Shown here piece by piece: positions 839 through 47,275 of a stretch of DNA of 55,049 bases. The stretch is from Candidatus Woesebacteria bacterium GW2011_GWB1_33_38 (lineage in GTDB: Bacteria; Patescibacteriota; Microgenomatia; UBA8517), in assembly GCA_000990005.1 (NCBI GenBank), contig LBPF01000006.1:99615-154663 (forward strand). Reading direction: 5' to 3'. The notes beneath the pieces were generated by a model that was given only the letters and a program-made list of their open reading frames with translations, did not search any database and was not told the origin of the DNA. How positions within the stretch are numbered: position 1 is the first letter of the stretch; the number at the start of each line of letters is the position of its first letter. The translations under genes were made by a program, and so were the position numbers.

Positions 839-1030
839 ATGAACGAACAGGAATTAAGAAAGCGAGCTGACAACATAACAGCTGAGGGTATTTTAAGAAT
901 TAGTGAAAAGACGGGCAAAAGTATAGATGAAATAATTAGAGAACAGATCAAAAAGTTTAAGGATCGTGGTCAAATGGAAGAACATATCGAACGTTTAGAA
1001 AAACCTTTAAAAAATGATTCTGATTCTTAA
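839..1030 (+). CDS. small hypothetical protein
   Basis: 63-aa charged ORF filling the gap between RAYT and gyrB. Confidence 0.55.
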   Translation: MNEQELRKRADNITAEGILRISEKTGKSIDEIIREQIKKFKDRGQMEEHIERLEKPLKNDSDS

Positions 1031-1031
1031 A

Positions 1032-3492
<2,461 letters not shown>

Positions 3493-41302: not shown

Positions 41303-43135
41303 TCATTTAATCCCCATCGATTTTTTGCGCCTTGCTTCAACTTCATCTAAAATAACTTTTCTGATCCTAATGGATCGTGGAGTTACTTCAACAAGTTCGC
41401 TGTCGTCAATATACTCTAAGGCATCATCCAAAACCATTACCCTTGGTGTATTAAAATGTTCTGCTGAGCCATCACCTTTACTTCTCATGTTACTTAGTTG
41501 TTTTTCTTTACAAACATTAACTATCATGTCCCCTGCTCTTGAGTTTTGGCCAACAACTTGGCCTTTATAGACTTTAATTGCAGGGCCTACAAAAAGCTGT
41601 CCTTGACCTTGAACATTTGTAAGTCCATATAACCTTGTTTCTCCCGTTTCAAAAGCAACCATTGACCCTCTATCTCTTTCTCTTTCAAAACCATCATCAG
41701 GTAAATAGTCAAAAAAGGCAGTATTAATTATTCCCATGCCTTTAGTGTCAGTTATCAGTTCACCTCTGAAACCTATAAGCTCTTTAGTGGAGACAGTAAA
41801 TTCCAAGGATACGATTCCTTCTTCATTTTTATACATATCATCCATCTTGCCATGTCTAATCCCCATGTGTTGTATAACAACACCTGAAAATTCTTCTGGT
41901 ACGTCCACGTAGACCTTTTCAAATGGAGTGTAAGTCTTACCATCAATTATTTTATTAATAACATGAGGTCTGGAAACAGAAAATTCATAACCCTCTCTCC
42001 TCATTCTTTCAATGAGGATTGCTAAATGTAGTTCTCCTCTACCAGACACTGTCCAAGTTCCGTCACTATTGTCTTCAACTTTTAAGGCAACGTCTGTCTC
42101 AAGTTCTTTATATAGTCTTTCTCTAATTTGACTACTGGTTTTAAAATCTCCCTCACGCCCTCCAAATGGAGAGTCGTTAACCAGAAAGACCATCTTAACA
42201 GTTGGTTCTTCAATTGATATTAAGGGAAGAGCTACAGGATTTTCTAAACTGGCAAGTGTTTCTCCAATGGTTACTTCTGGAATACCTGTAACAGAAACAA
42301 TATCACCCGCAAAAGCTTCTTTTTCGTCCTGTTTGGTTAGACCTTTGAAAGTAGTAATTGAAGTTAATTTTGCTCTTTTTTGTACACCTTCTCTATTAAT
42401 ATGTGTAACATCTTCAATTAATGAAATTTTTCCATTTTTAATTTTTCCTATGGCAATTCTACCTTTGTAATTATCTTTACCAATGTTACTGACAAGCATC
42501 TGAAGTGGTTTTTCTGGGTCTCCAGATGGAGCTGGAATATATTTGATAATTTCTTCAAAAATAGGGGTAATATCTTTCATTTTGGTAGGGTCTGGTTCAT
42601 AACCTGCTACTCCGTCTCGTCCGCTGGCGTAGATTGTGGGAAAAAAAGCCGTAGATTCATCAGCACCTAATTCAACAAATAAATCAAAAGTCTTTCCCTG
42701 AACCCATTCAGAACGGGCCCCCTTTTTGTCAATTTTATTTACAACAACAATAATTTTAAGGCCCATTTTAAGAGCATGTTTTAAAACAAATCTGGTTTGC
42801 GGCATTGGACCTTCTTTGGCATCAACCAAAAGCAATGCACCATCTGCCATAGAAAGAACACGTTCAACTTCTCCGCCAAAGTCTGCATGTCCTGGAGTGT
42901 CAATGATATTTATTTTGGTATCCCCATACATTACTGAAGCATTTTTAGAAAAAATTGTAATTCCGCGTTCTCGTTCAAGTTCATTTGAGTCCAAAATAGC
43001 TTCTTGTCCTGCGTCACCCTTCCCCATTTCAGTATGTGATTGACGCAAAAGTGCATCCACTAAAGTGGTTTTTCCATGATCAACATGGGCAATAATAGCA
43101 ACGTTTCGCACACTATGTGATGCAGTCCTATTCAT
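41303..43135 (-). CDS. typA: translational GTPase TypA/BipA
   Basis: AHVDHGKTT, ERGITI, GRGELHL, EVTPRSIRIRK. Confidence 0.97.
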   Translation of the reverse strand: MNRTASHSVRNVAIIAHVDHGKTTLVDALLRQSHTEMGKGDAGQEAILDSNELERERGITIFSKNASVMYGDTKINIIDTPGHADFGGEVERVLSMADGALLLVDAKEGPMPQTRFVLKHALKMGLKIIVVVNKIDKKGARSEWVQGKTFDLFVELGADESTAFFPTIYASGRDGVAGYEPDPTKMKDITPIFEEIIKYIPAPSGDPEKPLQMLVSNIGKDNYKGRIAIGKIKNGKISLIEDVTHINREGVQKRAKLTSITTFKGLTKQDEKEAFAGDIVSVTGIPEVTIGETLASLENPVALPLISIEEPTVKMVFLVNDSPFGGREGDFKTSSQIRERLYKELETDVALKVEDNSDGTWTVSGRGELHLAILIERMRREGYEFSVSRPHVINKIIDGKTYTPFEKVYVDVPEEFSGVVIQHMGIRHGKMDDMYKNEEGIVSLEFTVSTKELIGFRGELITDTKGMGIINTAFFDYLPDDGFERERDRGSMVAFETGETRLYGLTNVQGQGQLFVGPAIKVYKGQVVGQNSRAGDMIVNVCKEKQLSNMRSKGDGSAEHFNTPRVMVLDDALEYIDDSELVEVTPRSIRIRKVILDEVEARRKKSMGIK

Positions 43136-43151
43136 ATTTTTAGCAAAAAAT

Positions 43152-43175
43152 AAAAGCCGTTATTTACGGCTTTTT
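43152..43175 (-). terminator. intrinsic terminator (probably of the tRNA-Val/Ala transcript before element insertion)
   Basis: AAAAGCCGT-AAATA-ACGGCTTTT followed by T-run on minus strand. Confidence 0.65.
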
Positions 43176-43556
43176 AGCCTATAATTTATTATATCACAAG
43201 TGCCCTTATACAAAAAGGCTCGAACTTATTTCAGAAACAATTTCTAAAATCTATGCATAGTTTAACAGATTTTAAAAGCATTCTCCAAGAAAAGGGGTTA
43301 AAGGGGAAATGAATTGGAGAAGGCTCGGGTCTTCCGCTCAGCTCCGCTTCGCGGAGCTTCGCAAACACTGCATGGTCGGACTTCTCGCTCACCCCACTGC
43401 GGTGGGGTTCGCTAACCCAATTGAAAGGTAAAGGGGTTATTTATAATCAGGTACTTTGCAGTACCTGACGGTAGTTAACGGTATACAGGAAGAAGGTCGG
43501 TGAACACCGTTAACTGGCCGTAAATACGGCCTTTTGTCCGTGTTACCGTCCGCTGG

Positions 43557-44952
43557 TTTAACCGTTGCAAAGATTATTGTTATGTCTAAAACTTAATGTT
43601 TTTTGTGTTGAGTTAAATTAAAATTTATGGTTATTGGATTAGTTTTTGAAGTGTTAATTTTTTATTGGAAGGTGTAATTTTAGTGTGGTTTAAAGTTTTG
43701 ACAAAATAATACTAGCCTAAATTTATTAAGCTTCTTGTCCAAAAAAATTATGTTTTTAACTGTTTTTTAAACTTTAAATCACCTCCAATAATCTAAGTGT
43801 CTGTAATGAATGACAGTTGTTGAAAGTCAAAGAAAAGTGTGTATCTAACTTTTCTGAGGAATTCTGTGAAGTTTTTATATTTAGGTTTGATTAAGTAGAC
43901 CAAGAGGTATGCAATTAAGGCACAATAGATTTGAGATTTAACAGCATTGTGGGTAGTTCCAAAGAATTTTTTAAGTTTAAGGTTTTGTTTGATGAACTTA
44001 AAAAATAATTCTATATCCCATCTTCTTTTATATAAATCACGAATGTCATTTGCTCTTAAATCAAATCTATTTGTGGCTATGATTATTCCTTCTTTATGTC
44101 CTTCTTCTTTCTTAAACCTAATTACTCTAACAATATCTTGCATTACCCTAGATTTTCTTACTCTCTCAGGTCTACCAAGTTTTCCAGTTTCATCTGAAAT
44201 TACATTACTAGGTTTAATATGTTTTTGTTTAAACCAAGAAAATCTATTTGTTTTATGCATCCTAGCTACAAAGAAAGCTTTTGTTTTTATAATTTTTGTG
44301 TAAAGTCCGTAGTCATTAAAACCTCTATCAAAAATGTAAGTTAACCCCTTTTTATATTCAAATTCTTTTCCATGTGTAGTGTCTCCTTTTTTCCAATCTG
44401 AAATTATTATTTGATCAGGTAGTTGCCAAAAAGGATCATATTCAACTCCAATTTTAATAGCACCACGATTACCATCCATCTTCCAAAGTGAAAATAGATT
44501 TTTGGCAACAACTGAAGTTGTAGTGTCAATTACTCTTATTTTAGAATATGGAACTCTTTTCCTTACTTTTTCTAAAATGTGCCTGTATGCCTCTTCAAAT
44601 ATACCTGAATTTCTTTTTGAATTAACTCTTGAGAGTGAACTTTTGTTTATACCATCAAATGAAAACTTTCCTGTAGCCTCAACCATTGATGAAATATCAG
44701 AAAGCGATTTAGATTGTGCCAAGTTGGCAGATACCAATATTCCAAGCTGATCTTTAGTTGTTAACTTCTTACTCCATTTATCACTTCCATATCTTTCAAC
44801 AACCAAACCTAAACTTCCTTCAATCTCTCTTGTCAAGGTCTTGAAAAGACAACCACAAGATGTATCATTAATTAAAATGGGCAGTTACCTCCTTTGGTAC
44901 TGTCCATTTTTTATCTTTTGAATCTAAATGTCAAATCTTTGCAACGGTTAAA
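43557..44952 (-). mobile_element. IS4-family insertion sequence
   Basis: perfect inverted ends TTTAACCGTTGCAAAGATT (43557-43575) / AATCTTTGCAACGGTTAAA (44934-44952), including possible TTAA target duplication. Confidence 0.92.
43793..44836 (-). CDS. IS4-family DDE transposase
   Basis: VIDTT, FDRGF, YKRRWDIELFFKFIKQ (YREK); true start may be further upstream (ATT 44878). Confidence 0.95.
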   Translation of the reverse strand: MTREIEGSLGLVVERYGSDKWSKKLTTKDQLGILVSANLAQSKSLSDISSMVEATGKFSFDGINKSSLSRVNSKRNSGIFEEAYRHILEKVRKRVPYSKIRVIDTTTSVVAKNLFSLWKMDGNRGAIKIGVEYDPFWQLPDQIIISDWKKGDTTHGKEFEYKKGLTYIFDRGFNDYGLYTKIIKTKAFFVARMHKTNRFSWFKQKHIKPSNVISDETGKLGRPERVRKSRVMQDIVRVIRFKKEEGHKEGIIIATNRFDLRANDIRDLYKRRWDIELFFKFIKQNLKLKKFFGTTHNAVKSQIYCALIAYLLVYLIKPKYKNFTEFLRKVRYTLFFDFQQLSFITDT

Positions 44953-44992
44953 GCGCCGAGCGCCGACCAAGCGTTTATCCCATCTCCACGGA
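44953..44992. repeat. 40-bp inverted repeat, left copy
   Basis: reverse complement of 46384-46423 with 1 mismatch. Confidence 0.92.
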
Positions 44993-45078
44993 TTAAAACA
45001 CTACTCTACTCGGAAACTAAATTGATATTATTTGATATCTTGATACGGATTATTTACGGGCGTATAAATGATATTGCC

Positions 45079-46448
45079 ATGAGCAATATTGTAAATAATC
45101 CTAGTCTTCAAAAATTTTTCCTGTATGCAAGAAAATCAACTGATATTGAGGATATGCAAGTACAATCAATTGAGGGTCAACTTGATGAACTTCGTTTGCT
45201 TGCCAAACGGGAAAATATAACTATTGTTGAAGAATTAGTTGAAAAACAGTCTGCCAAAGTTCCAGGACGTCCAATCTTTAACAAAATGCTTGAGATGATT
45301 GAAGAAGGCCGTGCAAATGGCATTATCTCGTGGCATCCAGATCGTTTGGCAAGAAACTCAGTAGATGGAGGAAGAATAATTTATTTAGTAGACACAGAAA
45401 AAATATCTGCCCTCAAGTTCAATACCTTTTGGTTTGAACCCACTCCTCAAGGGAAGTTCATGTTGTCAATTTCATTTTCGCAGTCTAAATATTATGTAGA
45501 TTCACTTTCTGAAAACACTCGTCGTGGGTTAAGGCAAAAAGCTAGAAATGGTAATTTTCCGGGAGTTGCACCTCGTGGATATTTAAATGATACTAGAAAT
45601 AGAACACAAAGAAAATACTTTCTAACTCTTTTTATTTTGGTTTGTTTAAATGGAGTGGTGAAGTATATGAGGGCAGACACACTCCAATTATTTCAAAGGC
45701 ACTTTTTGATAAAGTACAAGAAGTCCTTGCTTCACGTAACCATCAATGGATTAATGCTAACGTCCAGAGAGTCCCCAAGCCTTATGTAGGACTTCTAAAG
45801 TGTGGTGAGTGTGGAATGGCAATTACAGCTGAAGTACAGCCAAAGTATTATAAAGAAACTAATCGTCGTGTTGAGTATACCTATTATCATTGTACTAAAA
45901 AATCTAAAATTGTTGGTTGTACACAGTCTCACTATGTCAGTGAAACAAATCTCCATTCCCAACTCACCACACTCATCAAAAAGTACACCTTGAAAAAGAC
46001 TTGGGTTAATCAGATGCTATTAAAATTAAAAATTGAAGAATCTGACATAGCCAAGTCTTGCCTTGATGTTATTAGTATCAAGAGAAAGGATTTAGAACAA
46101 ATAGACATTAAATTAAAATTATTGTTAGATAGTTATTTAGACCAGATTATAGACAAAGATGATTTTCAAAATAAAAAGTTTGAATTAATGTCTAAGCGTA
46201 AGACGCTAGAAGAACAAATCCTTTCTCTTAAAAAGAATCAAGGCAATTGGATTGAACCTTTCAAAAACTGGATAATTGAAGCTACTGGAGTAGATCAAAT
46301 AATATCAACACAAGATAAACAACAAATAAAGGTACTCGCCTCAAAAATCTTCGGCTCGAACCTCTTCCTAGAAAACAAAACAGTCCATGGAGATGGGATA
46401 AACGCTTGGTCGGCGCTCGGCGCCGACCCGACAGGTCGGTCTTGGGTG
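45079..46448 (+). pseudogene. large serine recombinase, frameshifted by an internal deletion near 45610
   Basis: LYARKS catalytic Ser, GRPIF, DRLARN, APRGY; second frame resumes ILSNSFY.G....GRHTPIIS, CGECG zinc ribbon, coiled coil. Confidence 0.85.
46384..46423. repeat. 40-bp inverted repeat, right copy (in recombinase 3' end)
   Basis: TCCATGGAGATGGGATAAACGCTTGGTCGGCGCTCGGCGC. Confidence 0.92.
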
Positions 46449-46517
46449 GACCTATGGAGAATCGAACTCCAGTCCTCTGACTGCCAGCCAGATGTCCTAC
46501 CATTGAACGACAGGCCC
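46447..46517 (-). tRNA. tRNA-Ala(GGC)
   Basis: cloverleaf, acceptor GGGCCUG/UAGGUCC with G3-U70, anticodon loop CU-GGC-AG, GUUCGA T-loop. Confidence 0.93.
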
Positions 46518-46528
46518 GTTAAATTGTG

Positions 46529-46601
46529 TGGACCCTACAGGCTTCGAACCTGTTACCTTACCCACGTCAAGGGTACGCTCTACCAATTGAGCTAAGAGTC
46601 C
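46529..46601 (-). tRNA. tRNA-Val(GAC)
   Basis: cloverleaf, acceptor GGACUCU/AGGGUCC, anticodon stem UACCC/GGGUA with loop UU-GAC-GU. Confidence 0.93.
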
Positions 46602-47275
46602 ATTTCCGATATTATATTACAAAACTTATGGCATAGAAACAGCAATCTTCTTTGAATAGCAATTTCTGTAAACCTAATTACACATACTCCATGGTAACTC
46701 TGATAAGTCTTTGTTTTGGCAATTCTTTTATCTTTTACAAAACTAAATTCACCCTCGTTAATATTTAATTCTTTTGACCAATATTTAATTGCGGATAGCT
46801 CATTTTGATCAGATCTCAGATGAAGTTGGCATCTGCCAAGTTTTGCATTCGGATAGAGTTTTTTAATTGCATTTATAAAAAACTTTAAAACTAATGGATT
46901 AGCATTGCCAATGCTTGTTTCATTTAACTTAGAACCTTCACCTAAATATAAAAAAGATAGTGCTAATTCTAAAACTGATTTATCATCTGCGTTAATTTTC
47001 TCTAAAACCAAATCGGCTTCATTTTTTGCGGTTTTTATTCGATTTGCTTTTTGAGAATGGTGCCAAAGTAATGCTTTCTTGCGAGCGCCATCCATTTTTA
47101 TTGATGCTTCTTTGTATATTTTATCTTTTTGACGTTTACTTAATTGTATTTTTCTAAACCAACAACTAAGTGTCGATTTAGGTATTCTATAGGCTTTATT
47201 GATCACTCCAATAGAAGTACCCTCTTTTCTTAATTTAATAGCTTGATCTTTTAATTTGAACCATCGAGATATCAT
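46592..47275 (-). CDS. HTH + LAGLIDADG-like domain protein
   Basis: N-terminal HTH (IPKSTLSCW), LYLGEGSK helix, IGNANP, YWSKEL. Confidence 0.6.
   Translation of the reverse strand: MISRWFKLKDQAIKLRKEGTSIGVINKAYRIPKSTLSCWFRKIQLSKRQKDKIYKEASIKMDGARKKALLWHHSQKANRIKTAKNEADLVLEKINADDKSVLELALSFLYLGEGSKLNETSIGNANPLVLKFFINAIKKLYPNAKLGRCQLHLRSDQNELSAIKYWSKELNINEGEFSFVKDKRIAKTKTYQSYHGVCVIRFTEIAIQRRLLFLCHKFCNIISEMDS

Follow-up and report, generated by a model that had tools for sequence, protein, structure and literature searches.

We analysed a 55,049-nt window of contig LBPF01000006.1 from Candidatus Woesebacteria bacterium GW2011_GWB1_33_38, in which a serine recombinase gene lies between typA/bipA and two neighboring tRNA genes, tRNA-Ala(GGC) and tRNA-Val(gac). 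The gene is part of a mobile element, the subject of this study, that abuts the 3' end of tRNA-Ala and also contains a non-coding arm and an insertion sequence (IS) (Table 1). Two open reading frames (ORFs) cover the recombinase, 45079-45789 and 45642-46595, and they lie in two reading frames. The second reads ...PTGRSWVDLWRIELQ... and crosses both tRNA genes in antisense, so that GTG at 46446-46448 is a codon of the recombinase frame (...PTGRSW-V). At the far end of the element, the stretch 43200-43250, which begins with the same GTG, translates as VPLYKKARTYFRNNF, a stop and N in a frame compatible with that of the recombinase.

Table 1. Features at the tRNA-Ala(GGC) locus (positions of the window)
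Feature	Positions	Strand	Remarks
typA/bipA	41303-43135	-	TypA domains in Pfam scan; host DNA left of the element
Terminator-like hairpin behind typA	43152-43175		Host DNA; equivalent hairpin adjoins tRNA-Ala in genome G001
GTG core, left junction (attL)	43200-43202	+	Once in the empty site; common to the right junction
Outer tail exon, P' arm of attP	43200-43247	+	Encodes VPLYKKARTYFRNNF and a stop; TCGAAC motif mimicking the tRNA T-arm
Non-coding arm of the element	43248-43556	+	G+C-rich and hairpin-rich; the IS ends the arm at 43556
IS4-like insertion sequence	43557-44952	-	19-nt perfect terminal inverted repeats; transposase ORF 43793-44836
Left repeat arm remnant (P arm of spare inverted attP)	44953-44992		Inner 40 nt left
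Recombinase pseudogene, 5' part	45079-45606	+	Resolvase catalytic domain and start of recombinase domain; PF00239 2e-22
Recombinase pseudogene, 3' part, other frame	45606-46448	+	End of recombinase domain, zinc ribbon, coiled coil, repeat-encoded C-terminal stretch
Right repeat arm, P arm of attP	46384-46447		Encodes ...HGDGINAWSALGADPTGRSW; abuts the tRNA
GTG core, right junction (attR)	46446-46448	+	Complement of tRNA positions 72-74 (C-A-C)
tRNA-Ala(GGC), target gene, still intact	46445-46517	-	ARAGORN; Rfam tRNA 54 bits
tRNA-Val(gac)	46528-46601	-	Beyond tRNA-Ala

Searching 40 relatives with the N-terminus of TypA as query, we found typA kept beside tRNA-Ala and tRNA-Val in two genomes of the same genus (G001 and G002). 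In G001 (locus L009) a gap of ~80 nt separates the typA terminator hairpin from tRNA-Ala. There the flank ...CACAAGTG is joined to the tRNA-Ala end, and the sequence ...tatattatatcacaagtg continuing directly into gacctggcggg... has the left flank of the window meeting the end of the tRNA through a single GTG. The GTG core is present once in this empty site and once at each end of the insert. These results show that 43200-46447 (3,248 nt) is one insertion, and in the empty site the hairpin at 43152-43175 stands ~25 nt from the tRNA-Ala end. Joints between 43106/7 and 46442/6 are also present in public contigs, from metagenome runs X1 and X7, of relatives that have diverged by ~8%. An earlier note, based on the letters of this DNA, had predicted an element with these boundaries at the 3' end of tRNA-Ala, an empty site with a terminator directly behind the tRNA, a recombinase frame entering tRNA-Ala in antisense at GTG and a compatible GTG at 43200 opening a tail peptide. 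The exact junction and the equivalent hairpin beside tRNA-Ala in G001 bear out the first two predictions, and the frame through both tRNAs and the peptide encoded by 43200-43247 agree with the others.

The same tRNA-Ala site in G002 (L008, 1104-1480) holds ~300 nt with a small GIY-YIG-like ORF. Directly at the tRNA-Ala end this genome reads ...aggtcggtg, which resembles the end of the window arm (...aggtcggtcttgggtg) and may be the scar of an earlier element.

The recombinase gene of the window is bracketed by a 40-nt inverted repeat of 98% identity (44953-44992 and 46384-46423), and paralogues in the same genome reveal what this repeat is derived from. Six copies of the resolvase domain are present in the genome, with one more partial copy found by protein search. 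Each of the four complete paralogues stops within the 3' end of a tRNA gene that lies convergent to it (Pro, Gln, Glu and Ser), and three of the four have long arms, of 62 nt (100% identity), 100 nt (99%) and 61 nt (79%). Intact paralogues occupy 7,785-10,905 of contig C4 and 18,283-20,166 of contig C13. In paralogue C13a the 62-nt arms are perfect, the inner tail reads HVFDLARKYYTVQNN before its stop, and the arm is 98.3% identical over 60 nt to the right arm of the window, reaching position 46447. On contig C4 the order is tRNA-Ser, arm (100 nt, 99%), recombinase, arm, tail exon, radical-SAM cargo, inverted tail exon and host gene. The C4 tail exon opens ...ALYKKIRTQFQTQ with a stop, in frame with the arm, and its start resembles 43200-43240 of the window in both DNA and peptide. 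The inner junction of arm and tail is the reverse complement of the sequence that the outer ends of the element would give on joining, and is therefore a complete, inverted spare copy of the attachment site attP. Intact relatives likewise carry a spare inverted attP just upstream of the gene, and it is because of this second, inverted site that their genes are bracketed by long, near-perfect inverted repeats (54-175 nt). We also considered a transposon end, or a simple switch of the Hin kind, as the meaning of the 40-nt repeat and rejected both, since one of its arms forms the attR junction and relatives show the other to be half of a full attP.

Among the cargo genes beside the recombinase modules of paralogues are those for a Schlafen/AlbA_2-domain protein (L003, 3742-4959, E 1.7e-15) and a radical-SAM protein (L004, 3769-4761, E 3.2e-08). 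Loci L001 (1853-1935) and L002 (on contig C13; 1840-2009) carry the same tail exon and arm, with 93% identity over 186 nt, in opposite orientation relative to their neighbors. One copy adjoins tRNA-Gly/His, the other the C13a recombinase, and the pair may either mark a rearrangement or delimit a single element of at least 20 kb. At L002 3720-3798 (C13 20219-20297), a second copy of the 5' half of tRNA-Pro, ~21 nt in length, lies 25 nt past the gene and may be the scar of another insertion.

A homologue search with an intact paralogue as query returned at least 7,925 matches, with source names from Microgenomates, Daviesbacteria and similar groups, and we inspected the tails of the best 120. 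Eight of these 120 close with the motif [YF]..[AI]RT[YQHF]F... followed by a stop; the remainder terminate for the most part in peptides of the G[IFLV]EP type, as encoded by an antisense T-arm. We then compared 25 loci from genomes and 78 from metagenomes, 64 of the latter with the ORF end on the contig. In the genome set, 19 of 25 genes end at a convergent tRNA and 18 of 25 have flanking repeats (54-136 nt, 95.6-100% identity). When such genes were flipped in silico, the frame being followed from the gene across the arm and on into the reverse-complemented DNA beyond the opposite arm, an in-frame tail resulted in 11 of 15 loci (for example PLYEKARTYFIQNF and PIYKLARTYFTTNF, each with its stop); three of the other four are frameshifted genes. 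Among the 64 metagenome loci, 52 read into a tRNA (26 tRNA species), six carry the tail and six end otherwise; of the 47 loci testable for repeats, 39 have them on both sides of the gene (median length 113 nt, median identity 99.1%). Both tail forms are therefore found in public data. A metagenome search with homologue P0110 gave six tail-bearing loci (best match 90%), P0110's own contig not being among the matches, and a search of genome contigs with the tail-bearing homologue P0027 gave the previous loci and one distant match, again not P0027's own contig. The tails at the ends of homologues support, across the family, the earlier proposal that the recombinase gene is split by its own integration: attP lies inside its 3' end, and integration therefore exchanges the last ~15 codons. 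The C-terminal motif Y..(A/V)RT.F, which the same proposal had singled out as a check, closes homologues and is also present in the paralogous elements of this genome.

Judged by its domains, the window enzyme belongs to the large serine recombinase (serine integrase) family. The R-K-S motif (R14 K15 S16) is invariant in an alignment of 46 members, from which L147, a locus with an in-frame stop, was left out. Pfam recognizes the resolvase domain (PF00239, 2e-22) and the zinc ribbon (PF13408, 1.4e-07) in the window recombinase, and of the recombinase domain PF07508 it recognizes profile positions 76-102 of 102, at 18.8 bits and below the cut-off of 21.1. PF07508 is present in a paralogue and in homologues (precomputed Pfam), so that the family assignment holds and the window copy is regarded as a pseudogene. 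The zinc ribbon has the inserted coiled coil of the family, with long helices (residues 347-427) after the ribbon strands in the model of a relative, and the closest solved structure is the C-terminal domain of A118 integrase (4KIS/6DNW, E 1.2e-5); ~65 residues extend past the part alignable to LI integrase. The attachment sites appear short, with a small common core (the 3-nt GTG) and P- and B-type half-sites that differ by an offset of +4. Intact members are 500-555 aa long and have recombinase and zinc-ribbon domains, unlike Hin/Gin-type enzymes of ~190 aa with a C-terminal helix-turn-helix and short hix/gix sites. The domains found in the window are of the serine type, with none of the tyrosine recombinase fold of SSV1-type integrases, although an attP inside the integrase gene is a feature shared with the suicidal integrases of that type. 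Among the ORFs of the window element there is no candidate for a directionality-factor gene.

The family inserts into the 3' ends of many different tRNA genes. Recombinase cores at least 96% identical occur at different tRNAs, in one case Arg(cct), Arg(ccg) and Tyr(gta), in another Val(gac) and Leu(tag). At the tRNA the arms end in TGGTG, or in TGGAG at seven loci, all of them Gly or Cys tRNAs; these ends are the complement of tRNA positions 72-76. Of 12 outer junctions inspected, nine have a GTG 3-5 nt before the tail begins its first codon. In the P' (tail) arm the start of a TCGAAC-like word is 17-18 nt out; in the tRNA arm the distance is 13-14 nt, and the offset is +4 in 35 of 39 pairs. 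For LI integrase, one report (PMC3783163) describes a ZD (zinc-domain) motif shifted 5 bp inward in attB relative to attP; as in that model, the outer motif here is nearer the center in the host-type arm, by ~4 bp. Searching by DNA located an outer inverted copy of the tail in 13 of 39 loci, at a distance of 1.6-5.5 kb; the peptide motif located one in 10 of 39.

Comparison with an intact allele reveals how far the window copy has decayed. The allele, P0009 (554 aa, from a cluster of 19 sequences), ends in the same read-through tail as the window gene and is 100% identical to 45079-45606 over residues 1-176 and, in another frame, 98.5% identical to 45606-46592 over residues 226-554. Residues 177-225 have no counterpart, 49 codons and one base being gone; by this alignment the window recombinase is a pseudogene with a deletion of ~148 nt and a frameshift. 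The IS, which encodes DDE_Tnp_1 (2e-19) and DUF4372 domains, is present in a single copy in the genome (one genome match). The flanks read contain no target duplication around it, from which we infer an adjacent deletion. To the left of the IS, the DNA continues for ~0.8 kb on contig C5, a stretch absent from the window; to the right, it begins 22 nt inside the repeat arm, which in a paralogue measures 62 nt. The left arm of the window has thus lost its outer 22 nt, along with the inner tail exon. The loss of arm and cargo sequence is most simply read as a deletion associated with the IS: the IS4-like element and an adjacent deletion would have taken away most of the non-coding cargo together with the 22 nt of arm and the inner tail exon. 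Given these lesions, the window copy presumably cannot be moved by its own enzyme, and at most in trans by a paralogue with 98%-identical arms. Subtracting the IS (1,396 nt) from the insert leaves 1,852 nt, which matches the ~1.85 kb proposed for a minimal element; the minimality did not hold, because the recombinase is frameshifted and the IS insertion removed arm and neighboring DNA. Intact relatives consist of a recombinase module of ~1.7 kb and 1.6-5 kb or more of cargo.

We consider it very probable that 43200-46447 is a decayed tRNA-Ala(GGC) element of a family that carries attP inside its serine-recombinase gene and keeps an inverted spare attP. A large serine recombinase would have inserted the element at the junction of acceptor stem, discriminator and CCA of tRNA-Ala(GGC), with GTG as core, and both junctions would have been formed by recombinase-catalysed exchange between attP and attB at C72-A73-C74. 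The P arm of attP encodes the conserved ...W.AL...P.GR.. stretch of the recombinase, and the P' arm a tail of 12-16 residues, [LIV]Y..ARTYF..N[FCY], with its stop codon. Integration would tear off the tail exon and leave it at the far end of the element (here 43200-47), and the integrated gene now reads into the antisense tRNA and so acquires an arbitrary tail. With the spare inverted attP of intact relatives, the gene can lie either way, toward the tRNA or toward the tail exon. Flipping of the gene between the arms, and excision, would be catalysed by the recombinase, and the tail would be translated, and be of consequence, in the free or flipped state.

Copies in other arrangements are consistent with such movement. 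L147 is a flipped copy, with the order tRNA-Val(+), arm, recombinase(+), arm and ELYNSARTFF with a stop, then a second repeat pair around the cargo; it is the mirror state of the majority arrangement. No tRNA is present in L098, where tail stretches stand on either side, the arrangement that an excised circle or the junction between two elements would be expected to give. A joint leading from 46438 to 43200, with 7 other letters, occurs in runs X5 and X7. It is, to judge from its letters, an attP-type junction of a close relative, and a circle and the inner inverted attP would look alike here. Among eight short contigs examined for circularity by terminal overlap, none overlapped.

Several observations weigh against this interpretation. 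L147, the sole flipped copy with tRNA context, has one in-frame stop, and comparison of its flanks with all loci collected revealed no locus in both orientations. The earlier note had named reads of attP or attB as a check: the attB form is present in the same-genus genome G001, whereas the exact attP or attB of the window strain is absent from the contigs of four metagenome runs, the window's own samples being represented by assembled (Logan) contigs, in which rare forms are invisible. In 26 of 39 relatives by DNA search, or 29 of 39 by peptide motif, there is no outer tail copy within the 1.2-5.7 kb examined. Because an intact allele exists in other assemblies, the recombinase deletion could be an assembly variant. 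As for the tail, it overlaps the DNA site TCGAAC, which must itself be conserved; the codon comparison given below is biased, its sequences having been selected by the peptide motif; and in an AlphaFold2 model of a tail-bearing relative (mean pLDDT, predicted local distance difference test, 75.7; confident to about residue 480) the tail region, residues 490-518 (the last ~30), has a pLDDT of 42-52, so that the model gives no structural support for a role of the tail.

Three further metagenome contigs, L128, L107 and L108, contain perfect inverted duplications of at least 1.8 kb around the recombinase or the cargo. These palindromes are most likely assembly paths through the inverted repeats of the elements and not real double structures, a warning for the binning and assembly of such loci.

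The tail exon might be merely the P' half-site, a DNA mimic of the T-arm for the zinc ribbon to bind, with a frame and stop that are incidental and no protein role or switch. Its conserved core is indeed the DNA word TCGAAC, as in the tRNA arm and at the fixed +4 offset, the AlphaFold model does not place the tail confidently, and most assembled copies (52 of 64) are without it. We nevertheless regard this explanation as improbable. At 55 of 61 junctions of relatives (41 unique sequences), more than chance would give, the tail adjoins the recombinase in a matching reading frame, and its stop always falls within 10 codons. The entropy of the ARTYF codons is 0.22, 0.31 and 0.80 at positions 1, 2 and 3, in a set chosen by peptide motif and hence biased; the variation is mostly in the third position (ACT/ACC/ACA/ACG for Thr, GCT/GCA/GCG for Ala, CGA/CGG/CGT for Arg) and therefore points to selection on the tail peptide. 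Some synonymous changes break TCGAAC yet keep the peptide. Conservation also extends to residues outside the DNA word: [LIV]Y, at a distance of four residues upstream, and the N[FCY] that precedes the stop. It is still harder to believe that the mobile unit is only the ~1.7-kb repeat-bounded recombinase cassette, hopping like an IS between tRNA ends, with 43200-43556 unrelated, older or separate: cores at least 96% identical at different tRNAs, several copies per genome and the 26 of 39 loci with no outer tail copy found in the DNA examined would all suit such a cassette, but the empty site lacks the whole of 43200-46447 in one piece with the left boundary exactly at the tail exon, the outer inverted copy is found 1.6-5.5 kb away in the 13 (DNA) or 10 (peptide) loci noted above, and a serine recombinase acting on two inverted sites brings about inversion rather than excision.

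Serine integrases integrate by recombining attP with attB, and excision requires a directionality factor. It is possible, though we hold it doubtful, that the tail, being exchangeable, serves as a built-in device for directionality: it would decide which way the reaction runs, in place of a separate factor. The ARTYF-tailed enzyme, made from the free circle or the flipped gene, would carry out integration of attP into the tRNA, and the tRNA-encoded tail would free the enzyme for excision or flipping. By means of the spare inverted attP, an integrated element could reverse its gene and so recover the integration-competent form; with a complete attP remaining in the chromosome, it could also act on further tRNA genes while staying in place. 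If the tail does act in this manner, such elements would drive spread and genome rearrangement in bacteria of the candidate phyla radiation (CPR).

The non-coding arm of the element is also repeated in the genome: 43326-43556 matches contig C5 (88% over 238 nt) and C13 (94% over 99 nt). Its predicted RNA fold has a z-score of -4.0. Rfam scans of 42900-46800 and of six paralogous loci found tRNAs and one sub-threshold chance match, so that the structured arm corresponds to no known RNA family. In four metagenome runs the summed contig depth over 43255-43405 is ~10 times that of its neighbors (471 versus 44 in X1), which indicates that this part of the arm is common to many elements in the community. 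On C5 (L001 of genome G000, ~1000-1935, minus strand) the arm continues as ~0.8 kb of G+C-rich, hairpin-rich non-coding DNA with repeated GTTAAC-containing words and no match to an Rfam family; this continuation could serve the element family as an origin or as an array for protein binding, or it could be an RNA.

On the other side of the insertion, the window ORF 46592-47275 (minus strand, 227 aa) adjoins the tRNA genes, and an ORF of 232 aa in L003 (711-1409, minus strand) likewise has tRNA genes beside it. The window ORF has no Pfam match. By eye, both proteins begin with a helix-turn-helix-like segment and contain an L(Y)xxEG(S/T)K stretch, and they may form a homing-endonuclease-like family.

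Several known systems resemble this family in part. With the large serine integrases (Listeria A118/LI, Bxb1, phiC31 and SPbeta SprA) it shares the domain order of resolvase, recombinase and zinc ribbon with a long helical insertion, and short attachment sites, here with a 3-nt common core. It differs from them in having attP within the 3' end of the gene itself, in targeting the 3' ends of many tRNAs and not one site, in keeping a complete second attP inverted beside the gene, and in that no directionality-factor gene is evident in the small elements. Hin, Gin and Cin invertases and Rci shufflons have a recombinase gene in or beside a segment with inverted repeats, whose inversion swaps a C-terminal coding end. 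Their enzymes are small serine invertases that work with an enhancer, or are of the tyrosine type, and the end that is switched is that of another gene (tail fibre, pilin), whereas here a large serine recombinase would switch its own end and one partner site is a tRNA junction. In the integration-dependent immunity of mycobacteriophages BPs and Brujita, attP lies within a coding sequence and the integrated and free forms differ in their C-terminus; there, the split gene is a repressor, the integrase is a tyrosine recombinase and there is no inverted spare site. SSV1-type tyrosine integrases target a tRNA gene. In these integrases of archaeal viruses and plasmids, too, the site lies within the integrase gene, which is partitioned on integration, according to a 2021 review of archaeal recombinases that describes self-disrupting recombinases as exclusive to archaea (PMC8371274). 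They are tyrosine recombinases of archaea, whereas the enzyme here is a bacterial serine recombinase, exchanges only its last ~15 codons and has a spare attP that permits an unsplit arrangement. A literature search, covering papers without their supplements, found no published description of the family, and the word 'tRNA' does not occur in the portion consulted of a large survey of serine recombinases (PMC10083194). The family thus appears to be very large and undescribed in these ultra-small bacteria.

Serine integrases are prized as simple, one-directional enzymes, and how they are reversed is a central question. The elements described here constitute a natural family, with at least 7,925 homologues and several copies in genomes of less than 1 Mb, in which the attachment site lies inside the enzyme's own gene, so that each DNA state encodes a different enzyme. 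The family recognizes a feature that most tRNAs have in common, which makes it of interest to anyone wishing to understand the choice of target or to re-aim it. The window adds to this a clean empty-site comparison and an example of element decay, and some of the mobility and rearrangement observed in CPR genomes may be explained by the family.

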